Made by a program: the position numbers and the translations under genes. The notes below the pieces were generated by a model. The model made no database searches, was not told the DNA's origin, and worked only from the letters and a program-made list of their open reading frames with translations. A DNA stretch of 64,000 bases from Eledone cirrhosa (Eukaryota). Below, piece by piece: positions 9,759 through 60,161 of the stretch. Positions within the stretch are counted from its first letter, which is position 1; every line of letters starts with the position of its first letter. Location: contig OZ024742.1 in the NCBI GenBank assembly GCA_964016885.1, forward strand, positions 19,592,001-19,656,000, read 5' to 3'.

Positions 9759-9895
9759 TCTTGCCTGATGAAATTGTGATAAACAGGCGAATCTCCAGAG
9801 TAACAATACTCACCATTTAGACTTAATAAAATGAATATTAAAACTCTACTTCGGTATTGAGTACTCTTTTCTCTCACCCGTCAACAACATACGGA
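9759..9895 (+). mobile_element. PLE-terminus fragment, family N, degenerate HHR
   Basis: CTGATGA...GAAT-CTC-CA-GAG-TA then TTGAGTACT. Homologous to the minus strand of 29406-29560, which has GAAA. Confidence 0.6.
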
Positions 9896-10026
9896 TATAT
9901 ATATATATATATATATATATATATATATATATATATATATATATATATATATATATATATATATATATTTATATATATATAGTGACGAAACATATGTCAA
10001 TTGCATGAACTCATAATCCTTTATTT

Positions 10027-10082
10027 ACTGCTATATATATTTCGATGATAGCCATTGAATGGCTATGACCTCATCAGGCAGT
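10027..10082 (-). ncRNA. Type I hammerhead ribozyme, family E
   Basis: ACTGC-CTGATGA-GGTCATAGCCA-TTCAA-TGGCTATCATC-GAAA-TATATA-TA-GCAGT. Stem I ACTGC/GCAGT. Confidence 0.85.
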
Positions 10083-10206
10083 TAGTCAGTTCTTAGATAC
10101 GCCAGCTCTGTGTTTATAGTGTTGATGGTATCAGAGCCTTGGGACATATATATATATATATATATATATATATATATATATATATATATATATATATATA
10201 TATATA

Positions 10207-10568
10207 TGTAAATATGATAATAATGGAGCTGCGGCGCTGCAAATGGGTTACATATGAAAAAGTTTGTCCTCATCAGTGGCCATCCAACCGTCGTAGGCAT
10301 TTCGTCGCATTAAAGGCCATATACCTCAGGTTGGTGCGAGCAACGGCTAAAAAAAAGTCGTTGGGACACGTAAATAAAGGGGACGCTAGAGTAAACAAAC
10401 AAAATGCTTAAACTATTTTGTTTGTTTACCCTAGCGTCCCCTTTATTTACGTGTCCCAACGACTTTTTTTTAGCCGTTGCTCGCACCAATTTGAGGTATA
10501 TGGCCTTTAATGCGACGAAATGCCTACGACGGTTGGATGGCCACTGATGAGGACAAACATTTTCATAT
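10207..10568. mobile_element. Hairpin insertion, family F
   Basis: ~150-bp arms (10252-10403 / 10416-10568) between TA tracts. Confidence 0.75.
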
Positions 10569-10581
10569 ATATATATATATA

Positions 10582-55647: not shown

Positions 55648-56326
55648 ATAAGTAAGTATACGTACATACATATATGTATACAGACGTACAGTAGTATGTA
55701 TATATATATATACATACATGCACACATATATATATGTACGTATGGATTCACCGAACATTTATTATAATGCTCGGTGTGTTTGTAAACAAACATCCCGAAT
55801 TAAGCCGTACAGTGTCTAGCAACCATCGTTGCTCATTTGTTCAACACTGACAAAGGAATGCTGTACTAGTTTCAAGCTTATTAGCTATCGTCAGCAACGT
55901 ATACCTTCCTGCCAGATGATTAAATGTCTGAAAGTATATACTTTCCTCATGCATATTAACGGCTGAGCAGCCTAATTTGCATATCGACGATAGCTAATAA
56001 GCTTGAAACTAGTACAGCGTTCCTTTGTCAGTGTTGAACAAATGAGCAACGATAGTTGCTAGACACTGTACGGCTTAATTCGGGATGTTTGTTTACAAAC
56101 ACACCGAGCATTATAATAAATGTTCGGTGAATCCATACATACATATATATATGTGTGCATGTATGTATATATATACATACTACTGTACGTCTGTATACAT
56201 ATATGTATGTACGTATACTTACTTATATTTAAATAACAGCCGTACTAAGAGTGAGAAATGAAATTTCGTTTCGGTTCGTTTTTCGTTTCATCGCTTCCTC
56301 TCGTTTCGTTTTATTTTTTTCCGTTT
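55648..56326. mobile_element. Hairpin insertion, family S
   Basis: ~240-bp arms (55648-55892 / 55986-56227). A tail piece also lies at 5166-5226. Confidence 0.85.
55860..55898 (-). ncRNA. Minimal type I hammerhead, family S
   Basis: GTTG-CTGACGA-T-AGC-TAATAA-GCT-T-GAAA-CTAG-TA-CAGC. Confidence 0.8.
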
Positions 56327-56344
56327 ATATATATATATATATAA

Positions 56345-59300
56345 TATTAAGGATATTATTTATAGTTATGTATATTTTAAACTATAAACAGGGAAGGTCA
56401 GTAATTTATTACTACCTTATTACCAGTAAGATAAATAGCTCAATGTAATAACATCAGTTGTTCTACAGAGCATTTATATAGAATTCACAAGAATCAAAGC
56501 TATGTTCAAAGCATTTATTCACTTACAATTGTTTCATCCAAACCTTGGCCTGCGGTCTTCGGAGCATTTTTCAATGTTTGTACATATAATTGACTTCCTA
56601 TCCAACGCAGGAGACATACAGATACATATATATATATATTGATGTACAGTGGAGCGACATATATTATATTATACTATATTTGTACAGCAATTCAAATTTA
56701 AAATCAAAATTAAAATACATGCGGCAGATAACACAGATAATGTAAGAGGATAGTTTGATAATCAGGTATGCGTTAGTCACACATGGAGCATGAAAGTGTG
56801 TCTCATTTATATACGATTATTGTGTGGCAAGGTGTTACATGTAATGCAAGCACTTTAAGCGGGTAAGCAAGAGTATTATGGTGGTTGTTGTTGTATGGTA
56901 TTTTTTGTATAGATCAAAAAAGTATGTGTGCAGAAAAAGAAAAAGAAAAAGAAAGTTATAGTTTTTGCATCCACCACCATTTTTACATTCAGAAAAGGAA
57001 GAAATAGTTTTTACATCCATCACATAAGTTACGATGATTCCGTATTGAATGTTTGATGCATTAAATTATTGTAGCGTATTGAGGCTCAGTGTTATTTAAT
57101 CCATATTTATAGAATAGGTTCTTTCTGCAGCGAGAATTTACAGTGGTTTATTACCCGGAAGTAGGTGTGCAATTAAGGGGAGTTAATGCGTAAGGGGAGG
57201 TAACTAGCTAATTCTCATAACTAAATTCATTGTTCTAATATACATTATATGGTGCCTCAATTGAGTCCCTTATATAAAAGGTTATATATTTATATCTAAA
57301 TTTCAATTTTAAATAGAGTCTACTCTATCATAATGTACTAAAGGTATCTATAGTAAGTTGATTACTCCTTATTATATAGTGCTACAATTGAATTTCCCAT
57401 ACAAAGTGCCATATCTTTATATCAAAGTTCACTGTAAATACAGTCTACTCTCAAAACATATCAGAGGACCTATTAAAATTTTGTCTACATAACCCCCGGT
57501 AAGTTATGGAGCAGCGTATGGCTGTTTGCATGACAAAATCAAATACATCTCTTGGGTAGACAAATACATCCCTCATTTACAATGTCATTAATCTATCCAT
57601 CAAGTTATACATGCATATATAATTCATATATAATTCATTGCACCACTCTGCATATACGTTAGACAGATCACTTATGTTAATAAATCAATCCTATGTATAT
57701 CTAATGTTATTACTCCATAAATTTAATTACAGATGCATATATAATTCACTGCCGTATCTAGTATTTAAAGTTTATATAGACTGTATTATATTTCTATCCC
57801 TATATAATTATAAGTAATTGAAAGTAATTATATTAAAGGTTGGTGTTTATGCGGATATTTCTAGGGTATAAAGTTATAGATAGAGAGAATGATTTGTGTC
57901 GAGGGAAGGGTGGATCAGAGAGTGTGGTGTAGTTGTGTAAGGCATGCCCTTGGGGTGTGGTGTTAGAAGCGGTGATGGGTTCAAGTCTGACATTGTTATA
58001 TATTGGGTTTAAAGTTTTGGAAGGAGTGCCGGGAACGGTGCTGGCACGACGCAAACACTTCCGATTTTTTTTATTAAGGAGGTTAAGGTTCGAAAAGATT
58101 ATAGTATGGGTCTCTAGTAGACAGAGGTTACAGAATTTATTAGGTGGTCTGTACGATGCCGCCTTACCTATCACTTCCCATTAAAGTGTATATGATCTAT
58201 TTCTAGTTTTCAGATAGTGTATGTAGCTAGATAGTGAAGTGGAGTTGGCTAGACTGTGTTTTTTGAAAGAATGGAGATGTGAATTGTATCTGGTTTTGAA
58301 GCAGTTCGAAGTAGAGCCTATATAGGTTTCAGAAGAGTTGCTAGTTCTGACCCTGCATGAGTAGATGATGTCCTTGATTAAGCAGTTTTTACCTAAAGGG
58401 CAGGTTCTATTAGATCTACAGTTACAATTATTTTGGATGATAACCTGTCGGTTATTATGTTGTGTAGAAGTCTGGTTGCTAGGTATTGCATTATGGCTAT
58501 GGGGGTTGTCGCTCCCAATGTTATTGATTTCATTAGTGTTATTACTATTATTACTATTGATATCAGGTTTTGCAGATATTACGTTGTTTTGAAAGTTTAC
58601 CCCCTGCTGTGTTTTAGTTTGTTGAAAGTAAGTATTAATCTTTCTTTTATTGCTACTAGCTATGTGGTATGCTATGTTAGGCGTGGTAGAGTAGGAGATT
58701 TTAAAGGTGTTTTTATTTATAAGACTATGGTACTTGTGGCCAGATGGGAAGTTTTTTATCCAGGAGTGAGAAGAAAGATTAGGTAGGTTGGTAGAGACGT
58801 TTAGATTGAAAGGGGGGTTGAAAATGTATTAGTTCTTCTTCTATTTTTGTTTTTTATATCTGTTGAGGTGTTTCTGTTTATGGTATTTTGGTGTCTTCTC
58901 TGGTGTGAGTTACGTTTGTTGCTACCCTTCGTATTAGTGTGTGTGTGGTTATTACTCTTATTACTATTTTTCCTCATGGATATATTGTGAGAAATAATGT
59001 TGTAACTATGTGTTTTTATAGGTAGGAACTCGATCTCATTATTATGGCCTGATCTAGCTAATGCCTGATTATAGTATTGTGAGTTTTTGCTAAATATGGT
59101 TTCGTCATAAGACAGATTAGAGATTCTATTGGATATTCCTTTAGAGATAGAGTTTAATGTTGATCTAGGGTGGTTAGACTTGGTATCTATGTAAATTAGT
59201 TTTTCGTTAGGTTTATGGAATGGTGTGTATATTTTAGAGTCTAGGTAAAGGGTGGTATCAAGGATGTTAACGTTTTTAGTGTTTTTGTCTATGGTGATAC

Positions 59301-59844
59301 TTAGGTTATAGTTTTTGAAAGTCTTATGCAATAGTTTCCTAGTTCTTTCTATATTAAATTTGTTATAGTCTATAAGGAGTAGTGCATCATCGCGGTACAA
59401 ACCACCGTTGAGGTATGGTAGGTCCTTATGGATTTCGTTTAGTAGGTATAGGCCCACCAAATCAGTGACCTGCGCCGAGTCACTAGATCCCATGGTTATG
59501 TCAAAGTTATTATGCGTATCTTTGCGGGTCCATAACTGATCTTCAAAAGTGATTACGGTTTTACGGGCCGCAAGTATGACATCAATCTGAGGTCTAGTCA
59601 GGTCACTATTGTTCATGGCCATAATTAGTGCTTTATTTAATAGGATAGGGGAAATAGAGGTGTAGTATGAATTGATATCAAACTGAATATTTTTTTTATT
59701 TTTGTTCTCTTTGATATCCACTGCGTTGGATAGGAAGTCAATTATATGTACAAACATTGAAAAATGCTCCGAAGACTCCAAGCCTAGGTTTGGATGAAAC
59801 AATTGTAAGTGAATAAATGCTTTGAACATAGCTTTGATTCTTGT
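56345..59844 (-). mobile_element. 5'-truncated decayed PLE with inverted terminal arm
   Basis: RT motifs (FDINSYYTSI, ITMGSSDSAQ, GGLYRDD), endonuclease motifs (IIYSCRV..YIGSTS..FKTRYNSH; CNLCLLE), ~1.3-kb 3' region. 59721-59844 is the inverse of 56486-56610. Confidence 0.88.
59766..59810 (+). ncRNA. Hammerhead-like fold with CCGAAGA core; other copy about 56521-56566 on minus
   Basis: GCT-CCGAAGA-C-TCCAAGCC-TA-GGTTTGGA-T-GAAA-CAATTG-TA-AGT. Confidence 0.65.
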
Positions 59845-59937
59845 GGAGAGAGAGAGAGAGAGAGAGAGAGAGAGAGAGAGAGAGAGAGAGAGAGAGAGAG
59901 AGAGAGAGAGAGAGAGAGAGAGAGAGAGAGAGAGAGA

Positions 59938-60161
59938 GTCTGCAGTGCTGAGACTAAGGAGATCACTAATTTTGTGAGTACTCGATACATGGGGAGATGT
60001 AGAGTGGGTATAGAGATATGTAAAATCCCGACCGCGGCGCCAAGCAGTTTCGGGTTGGCGCCGCGGTCGGGATTTTATATATCTCTATACCCACTCTACA
60101 CCAACCCATGTCTCGAGTACTCACAAAATTAGTGATCTCCTTAGTCTCACCACTGCAGACT
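59938..60161. mobile_element. Hairpin insertion, family T, flanked by (GA)n and CT-rich DNA
   Basis: ~105-bp arms. Distant relative of family A (TACCCACTCTAC, CGAGTACTC, GAAACTGCTTG). Confidence 0.8.

Follow-up and report, generated by a model that had tools for sequence, protein, structure and literature searches.

The stretch of DNA analysed here, hereafter the window, comprises 64,000 nucleotides (nt) of the Eledone cirrhosa genome (assembly GCA_964016885.1, contig OZ024742.1, positions 19,592,001 to 19,656,000 of the forward strand; all coordinates below are positions within the window). It is microsatellite-rich and contains many short elements flanked by (TA)n, many of them folded back, together with several fragments of open reading frames (ORFs) of Penelope-like elements (PLEs), whose reverse transcriptases (RTs) are the sister group of telomerase. 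A sequence-only reading of the window had noted a recurring GAGYRC motif near element 3' ends and before PLE start codons. Here we show that this motif is real, yet is not a lone linear signal: PLEs of the Hydra clade carry two conserved bulged hairpins between the hammerhead ribozyme and the start codon, and inserted copies end just 5' of one of them. By analogy with a better-characterized PLE, each hairpin is probably an RT-binding site, with the primer pairing to TA just 5' of the hairpin. Throughout, hairpin 1 denotes the copy inside the 3' end and hairpin 2 the copy before the ATG, while site A and site B denote ends just 5' of hairpin 1 and hairpin 2, respectively.

Three Hydra-type elements in the window are associated with recognizable ORFs. 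On the plus strand, a broken, internally deleted ORF start (36822-37368) with KDIP, RWR and DKT motifs is preceded by hairpin 1 (36687-36707; motif site 36700), by site B (36771-36776, the 3' end of tailed copies, with TA microhomology, 4-9 nt before hairpin 2) and by hairpin 2 (36780-36799; motif site 36792), which lies 22 nt before the ATG at 36822. The upper stem of this hairpin 1 is damaged; it is restored by other letters in sequencing reads and is intact in sister copies at 31831-31852 (plus) and 36426-36447 (minus). A downstream pseudo-long terminal repeat (pseudo-LTR; 37400-37550, plus, hammerhead at 37451) ends at site A, 7 nt before the expected start of hairpin 1. On the minus strand, hairpin 2 at 35699-35716 (motif site 35698) lies 20 nt before the ATG (35678) of a frameshifted 5' part of an ORF (34660-35678, end approximate); the 3' tail of this element carries a hairpin 1 variant at 34358-34405 (minus), in which GAGC is followed by CC, and stops 11 nt short of the position of hairpin 2. 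The third element, also on the minus strand, has hairpin 1 at 56436-56471 and a 5'-truncated RT-endonuclease ORF at 58040-59845 (end approximate); the end of its inverted arm, at 59845, lies 14 nt before the hairpin. A possible damaged hairpin 2 (43699-43715, minus) lies 20 nt before an ATG lacking an ORF.

We assign the window ORFs to the Hydra clade on the strength of their motifs and their likeness to published Hydra proteins; statements about published elements, here and below, refer to the accessible parts of the cited papers. An initial protein search gave one homolog only; with a cutoff of E 0.001, the ORF that begins at 35678 has 1063 relatives. Its KNIP, RWK/RWR, DKT and CxCX5C motifs are those of the Hydra clade (PMC8557442), with which the window elements also share the hammerhead, the (TA)n target and the tail. 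The N-terminal RWR is present in both window ORF starts; among homologs the W is invariant and the R occurs in at least 90%, and an RWK-type motif is also found in Hydra-1_Obim and Hydra-1_Ajap. DKG is changed to DKT in the ORF at 37030 and in the homolog consensus, and reads DKA in the 35678 copy. A CxCX5C linker and, at the C-terminus, a GIY-YIG-like region without CCHH were recognized by eye, with no profile match, in the 58040-59845 ORF and in P0004. No relatives were found among the viral contigs searched.

Homologous loci outside the window numbered 82, of which five had no KNIP anchor and nine more had <130 nt upstream; merging of the remaining 68 gave 48 clusters. Like Hydra elements, the window copies are inserted into (TA)n, and four of the outside loci (L009, L011, L033 and L041) have unit offsets of about 2.5-2.8 kb, in keeping with an element length of <3 kb. 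Hammerheads occur in window pseudo-LTRs at 36503, 37451, 36000/36182, 15810/16000 and 11272, and a strict hammerhead pattern matched 5/48 outside clusters, many of which are too short. In Rfam, no hammerhead appeared among the 150 of 258 matches listed, which consisted of microsatellite-driven microRNA and weak chance matches. Five of the 82 loci (L078-L082) are Hydra PLE sequences in prokaryotic genome bins, one of them in a 491-kb contig labelled Denitrobaculum; they likely represent host contamination or mis-binning.

All 15 GAGYRC-type 9-mers listed by the sequence-only reading are present, 14 at exactly the given coordinates and one displaced by 1. When complex-sequence ends abutting (TA)n were clustered, one cluster per family, a sense GAGYRC lay 30-90 nt from the end in 14 of 79 clusters, against a background of 27 in 800 windows (3.4%; binomial P 4e-7). 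Composition shuffles reached a mean of 2.4 and a maximum of 10 clusters (2000 shuffles). Further copies absent from the original list lie at 9117, 18720, 34363, 37977, 56441 and 43704. A second candidate motif, CGGRRT (12 clusters), was dropped on account of its scattered positions.

GAGY forms the 3' strand of a bulged hairpin consisting of RCUC, a variable upper stem-loop, a U-N bulge, GAGY and then RCU. The lower-stem complement upstream of GAGY is RCTC, such that ACTC pairs with GAGT and GCTC with GAGC. This partner, together with a bulge of 2 nt and two or more upper pairs within 36 nt, was found for 14/35 GAGYRC matches located 30-100 nt before a TA/CT run, and for 1/47 matches elsewhere in the window. 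Allowing longer loops and one mismatch gave 42 window matches, including copies absent from the original list; about 15 of the 42 are satellite, opposite-strand or probably chance matches. Thermodynamic support for the lower stem was obtained at 12/20 window sites, with one neutral, and pairing probability exceeded 0.5 in 51/68 outside hairpins. The originally listed site at 44082 has no hairpin partner, the hairpin of its family being 44123-44193.

Among the 68 outside hairpins, for which no upper-stem condition was set, upper-stem pairs 1-4 are kept in 68/68, 49/63, 40/48 and 22/39 cases, compared with means of 45.7, 26.8, 19.7 and 13.9 in shuffles that ignore possible shared ancestry between clusters; the real pairs are of many types, and compensatory lower-stem variants occur in 5 clusters. 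The bulge is 2 nt long in 68/72 hairpins and its first base is U in 68/72, with a variable second base. The first upper-stem pair is U-A in 22/27 copies of hairpin 1 and C-G in 26/27 copies of hairpin 2. After GAGY, the flank in outside loci reads C (68/68), T (66/68), C (45/68), T (64/68). The resulting near-palindrome, GAGYRCUC, could permit cross-pairing of two hairpins or of two RNAs.

A strict hairpin detector was derived from the window, the hairpin idea having been formed before the outside loci were examined. It found a hairpin in 40/48 outside clusters and two copies in 27, compared with a mean of 0.43 and a maximum of 3 in 200 shuffles, 0/48 in an ORF control and 6/48 on the reverse strand. 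A distance of 54-82 nt (median 61) separates hairpins 1 and 2, and 13-58 nt separate hairpin 2 from the ATG that follows it, an arrangement displayed in an alignment of 15 outside loci with the window; in L004, L006 and L008 the distance to the called ATG is longer (55-59 nt), and translation may begin in frame further upstream. A pair of copies spaced by about 61 nt, of which the second just precedes the ATG, explains both of the positions in which the motif had been noticed. Outside the window, GAGYRC occurs at most 150 nt upstream of the ATG in 41/48 independent clusters. It has also left traces in protein annotations: among 150 homologs, 40 had at least 10 residues called before the true Met, and 17 of these extensions were compatible with the motif 6-30 nt before that Met (three frames: LST, EH and RAL types), as against a shuffled mean of 1.9 and maximum of 6 (300 shuffles) and 7/61 for more distal windows.

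The ends of inserted copies follow the hairpins. All seven TA-flanked 3' ends of downstream copies outside the window lie 0-9 nt upstream of a hairpin (hairpin 1 in four cases, hairpin 2 in three), although the TA/AT positions that immediately precede a hairpin make up a fraction of only 0.113 of those in the region. Within the window, 16/16 short arms, representing 10 families, have their ends 6-17 nt before hairpin 1, and in the two tails for which hairpin 2 is present the end falls 9 and 11 nt before that hairpin. In public sequencing data over 36655-37545, depth drops about 45-fold at 36775, before hairpin 2; 61 and 68 contigs (two runs of one sample) have loose ends into (AT)n at 36776, and two raw-read runs from one other study show a related subfamily whose end lies 7 nt before hairpin 1. 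The published consensi (PMC8557442 File S7) agree: Hydra-1_Ajap has both hairpins at its start and lacks hairpin 1 at its end, whereas Hydra-2_Ajap and Hydra-2_Amil end in hairpin 1 plus about 25 nt. Hairpin 2 was not seen at 3' ends, and hairpin 1 is carried inside the tail. The fixed quantity is the distance from the end forward to the next hairpin (0-17 nt) rather than the 30-80 nt from the motif to the end. Separately, 5' junctions or TA runs occur shortly before hairpin 2 in L001, L019, L059, L064 and L065 and at 35755 in the window, for which no enrichment is claimed.

The families sharing this motif had been taken to be unrelated, which is probably not the case. Three are physically joined to Hydra-clade ORFs, and the remaining short, ORF-less families, which share only the hairpin, the end geometry and the (TA)n context, are putative Hydra 3' ends. 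By our reading, fold-backs of the hairpin families combine a short arm ending at site A with a long arm ending at site B in 13/15 cases, with one A/A and one B/B (P 0.004 if arm types were independent, at their most favourable value of p=0.5). In two small insertions, 6912-7056 and 22154-22289, the long arm passes site A by just 9-10 nt, and these look like twin-primed products.

That the motif is a cis-signal is supported, and RT recognition is the best of the three options originally offered (core promoter element, 3'-processing signal or RT recognition site), the signal being a covarying hairpin and not a 6-mer. In the mechanism that we consider likely, the RT-endonuclease would nick a (TA)n target, the primer would anneal to TA just 5' of a bound hairpin, and reverse transcription would begin internally, therefore leaving the hairpin out of the cDNA that it directs. 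A start before hairpin 1 would give a tail-less end and a start before hairpin 2 an end with a tail carrying hairpin 1, so that the PLE tail would be the stretch between two start sites. More speculatively, one insertion might use both sites, one per DNA end, to produce fold-backs with a short and a long arm. We advance only tentatively, and with more doubt than confidence, the extension that a Hydra RT-endonuclease dimer holds both TAR-like hairpins of a single RNA and primes simultaneously from both (TA)n cut ends, with each subunit starting just upstream of its own hairpin; if true, dual priming alone would generate both the PLE tail and asymmetric fold-back insertions.

The closest precedent for such initiation is the Poseidon element PAc of Anolis, in which internal initiation of reverse transcription occurs at two sites that delimit the tail, RNA about 55-60 nt 3' of the start is required, and both strands are extended (Frangieh et al. 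2024, PMC11167929). A dimer is predicted for PAc, and in the accessible parts of that paper the RNA binding motif is left undefined. PAc and Hydra elements are thus alike in having two tail-bounding sites, which for PAc are RT starts in vitro and for Hydra are genomic ends. They differ in that reverse transcription of PAc begins within the ORF, at an AC-rich stem-loop, while Hydra ends lie in the 5' untranslated region (UTR), each before its own hairpin copy. LINE 3' stem-loops offer a further parallel: in eel UnaL2 a conserved stem and internal loop are required for mobilization of the LINE and its partner SINE (PMC1636434), but that stem-loop is single and inside the copied 3' tail, whereas the Hydra hairpins are two and each lies 3' of its associated end.

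At the level of RNA structure, the core of hairpin 1 matches HIV TAR, in which A22, the U23 bulge and G26-A27-G28 face C37-U38-C39-U40 (Pham et al. 2018, PMC6189040). As in the arginine sandwich motif of TAR and 7SK, the first bulge base is a conserved U and the second is free; the U is present in 68/72 hairpins, a Watson-Crick first pair accompanies a 2-nt bulge in 68/72, and an A-U pair lies two positions on, swapped in one cluster. Differences are also evident. The TAR loop closes the GAG-containing stem, while the Hydra loop closes the other stem, a circular permutation, so the hairpin is not a TAR, and hairpin 2 mostly has G-C where TAR has its A22-U40 pair. By this analogy the hairpin may act like the TAR bulge, with a triple and an arginine contact predicted, as a case of convergence implying no common descent. 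More speculatively, the bulge would form a TAR-like U.A-U triple binding an arginine of a basic N-terminal helix. An AlphaFold model of a Hydra protein (pTM 0.56) contains a helix at residues 18-45 that includes the RWK motif, and among the matches listed it resembles RTs in a general way (DRT9, telomerase, retrons), with no entry titled as a Penelope-like protein. A sequence search for relatives of solved structure found none, and a complex prediction with two copies of the first 185 residues, which scored 0.01 with the fold uncertain and the alignment not used, carries no weight either way.

Several observations weigh against this account. In the window, 2 of the 14 GAGYRC clusters are not tails: 22910 is, by eye, apparently a LINE end, and 35755 is the near-palindromic copy preceding an ATG read on the opposite strand. 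When 320 patterns sharing this shape are compared, the runners-up reach 12, 10, 10, 10 and 10 clusters; for these two reasons, support from the window alone is just suggestive, and we judge the motif real because the loci outside the window decide the matter. Folding gives a lower-stem probability of at most 0.1 at 7/20 window sites, and 8/48 outside clusters have no hairpin match, some of them 5'-truncated near the ATG (by eye) and others divergent (L043, L046, L049, L063). The third G-C pair is changed in two clusters, cluster L070/L082 swaps the A-U pair that the proposed triple requires, and the model gives no account of the conserved flank that renders GAGYRCUC near-palindromic. As many as 18/25 listed outside junctions are not TA-flanked; in 6 of these 18 a hairpin follows after 0-8 nt, and the remainder lie 38-212 nt from a hairpin or have none detected downstream. 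We read these ill-fitting junctions, without proof, as boundaries of inversions or of divergence. Window families without the hairpin motif also include asymmetric fold-backs, with extensions of 40-48 nt (8363-8865, 10208-10564 and 10583-11002), and the twin-priming step is speculative for this reason. Finally, the in vitro precedent comes from another clade, and binding by the Hydra RT is a prediction.

Several other explanations merit consideration. Chance or selection by the reader, which the runners-up might suggest from the window alone, is refuted by the out-of-sample hairpin detection, the covariation, the N-terminal extensions and the end positions, and its probability is negligible. 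RNA processing, in which cleavage of the transcript immediately 5' of each hairpin creates a new 3' end where the RT starts by ordinary target-primed reverse transcription, would yield the same genomic ends, and some 5' junctions do lie shortly before hairpin 2 (L019, L059, L064, L065). However, 5' junctions between hairpin 2 and the ORF start are, by eye, about equally frequent; in the Poseidon element, initiation is internal and takes place on RNA that is unprocessed (PMC11167929); and in one family the end position shifts with the location of TA (6 and 17 nt), as expected of primer pairing. We regard processing as unlikely.

A signal read at the DNA level is a quite unlikely alternative: here the GIY-YIG endonuclease would recognize the hairpin in single-stranded cDNA, or duplex GAGYRCTC, and cut beside it during resolution. 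The almost symmetrical conservation of the flank (C 68/68, T 66/68, C 45/68) would suit this explanation, as would the attribution of tails to endonuclease-mediated resolution when the Hydra clade was defined (Craig et al. 2021, PMC8557442) and the need of the Drosophila Penelope endonuclease for a tail in cleavage (cited in PMC11167929). A duplex site, however, has no need of a covarying upper stem and a fixed 2-nt bulge; the bulge U is on the sense strand, stem mismatches are mostly U-U (13, versus 0 A-A, at pairs 2-3), and the ends abut (TA)n with TA microhomology in the template. Covariation likewise speaks against a duplex DNA reading of the hairpin as a downstream core-promoter element, an interpretation disfavoured on that ground. 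In its wider form, with the hairpin as a core-promoter or 5' UTR regulator and the ends clustering through an AT-rich spacer, such an explanation could point to hairpin 2 lying 13-58 nt before the ATG and to internal promoters in the corresponding region of other PLEs (PMC8557442); yet just 11% of TA/AT positions in the region precede a hairpin while 7/7 ends do, and we consider it very improbable. The hairpin may in addition act as a translational operator for its own protein.

The remaining hairpins of the window belong to ORF-less families. In the commonest fold-back family, hairpin 1 lies at 22569-22594 (plus; motif site 22587), with sisters at 6959-6984 (minus), 9233-9258 (minus), 22229-22246 (plus), 29303-29328 (plus), 32134-32159 (plus) and, mutated, 43910-43935 (plus). 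Other plus-strand copies of hairpin 1 are found at 15024-15044 (motif site 15037; sisters 23144-23164, plus, and 54433-54453, minus), at 9843-9864 (motif site 9857; sister 29431-29454, minus) and, with a long loop and absent from the original list, at 9071-9122. On the minus strand, hairpin 1 occurs at 11063-11085 (one basal mismatch; motif site 11062), 15665-15705 (long loop, one G-U pair; 15664), 33017-33052 (one lower-stem mismatch; 33016), 35867-35893 (35866), 52532-52559 (52532; sister 43289-43314, minus, with one mismatch, motif site 43288) and 54990-55011 (shifted bulge; 54989). The long-loop hairpin 1 at 44123-44193 (minus), which supersedes the site at 44082, belongs to the 44030-44343 fold-back and lies 7 nt after the short-arm end. 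A symmetric fold-back carries hairpin 1 at 59978-60005 (minus) and, in its other arm, at 60093-60120 (plus; motif site 60113). A divergent hairpin at 18715-18771 (minus; sister 37927-37982, plus) has one lower-stem mismatch and no RC after GAGT, and folding does not support its lower stem.

The window also contains an open PLE ORF of another clade (1061-4012, minus; 983 aa, Asn-rich N-terminus) with related fragments at 1-620, 4100-4223 and 32220-32940; the hairpin detector found no match on this element or its fragments. A separate upstream frame starting MTLPK holds its element ends, as in the Anolis element. Cores that resemble hammerheads but have altered first bases, and whose activity is doubtful, lie at 19878-19978, 34325-34500 and 56480-56600. 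Tandem satellites include a 62-nt unit at 26611-27778, a 23-nt unit at 13077-13859 and a 48-nt unit at 27996-28301, the last having a similar stem and bulge without the conserved flank, which may be due to chance or derivation. Fragments of LINE-type RTs, all on the minus strand, occupy 44949-47715 (two frames with Pfam RT and zf-RVT matches), 51258-52466 and 62887-63585. Non-LTR retrozymes (bioRxiv 10.64898/2026.07.22.740005) are likewise short PLE-derived sequences with type I hammerheads, but form tandem arrays, whereas the window copies are dispersed single arms or fold-backs; no tandem arrays of hammerhead units, of which retrozymes have at least two, were seen in the window.

The elements themselves are already known; what appears to be new is the paired hairpin as a putative template-recognition RNA element. 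No description of it, or of its link to element ends, was found in searches of the openly available literature. The words hairpin, stem-loop, palindrome and dimer are absent from the main text of PMC8557442, although by eye five of the six published Hydra consensi contain the hairpin (Amil-2, Ajap-1, Ajap-2) or a variant (Obim-1, Crog-1). How PLE RTs choose their template, start internally and give rise to one-ended tails and fold-backs is an open question in the papers cited. The hairpin is a defined RNA element present across the clade, from the position of which element ends can be predicted to within about 0-17 nt, and the question of the start site therefore becomes testable with a hairpin of about 25 nt. 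It also provides a marker for classifying the ORF-less fold-back fragments of invertebrate genomes, and would serve as a portable start signal should Hydra-type RTs be developed for gene insertion.

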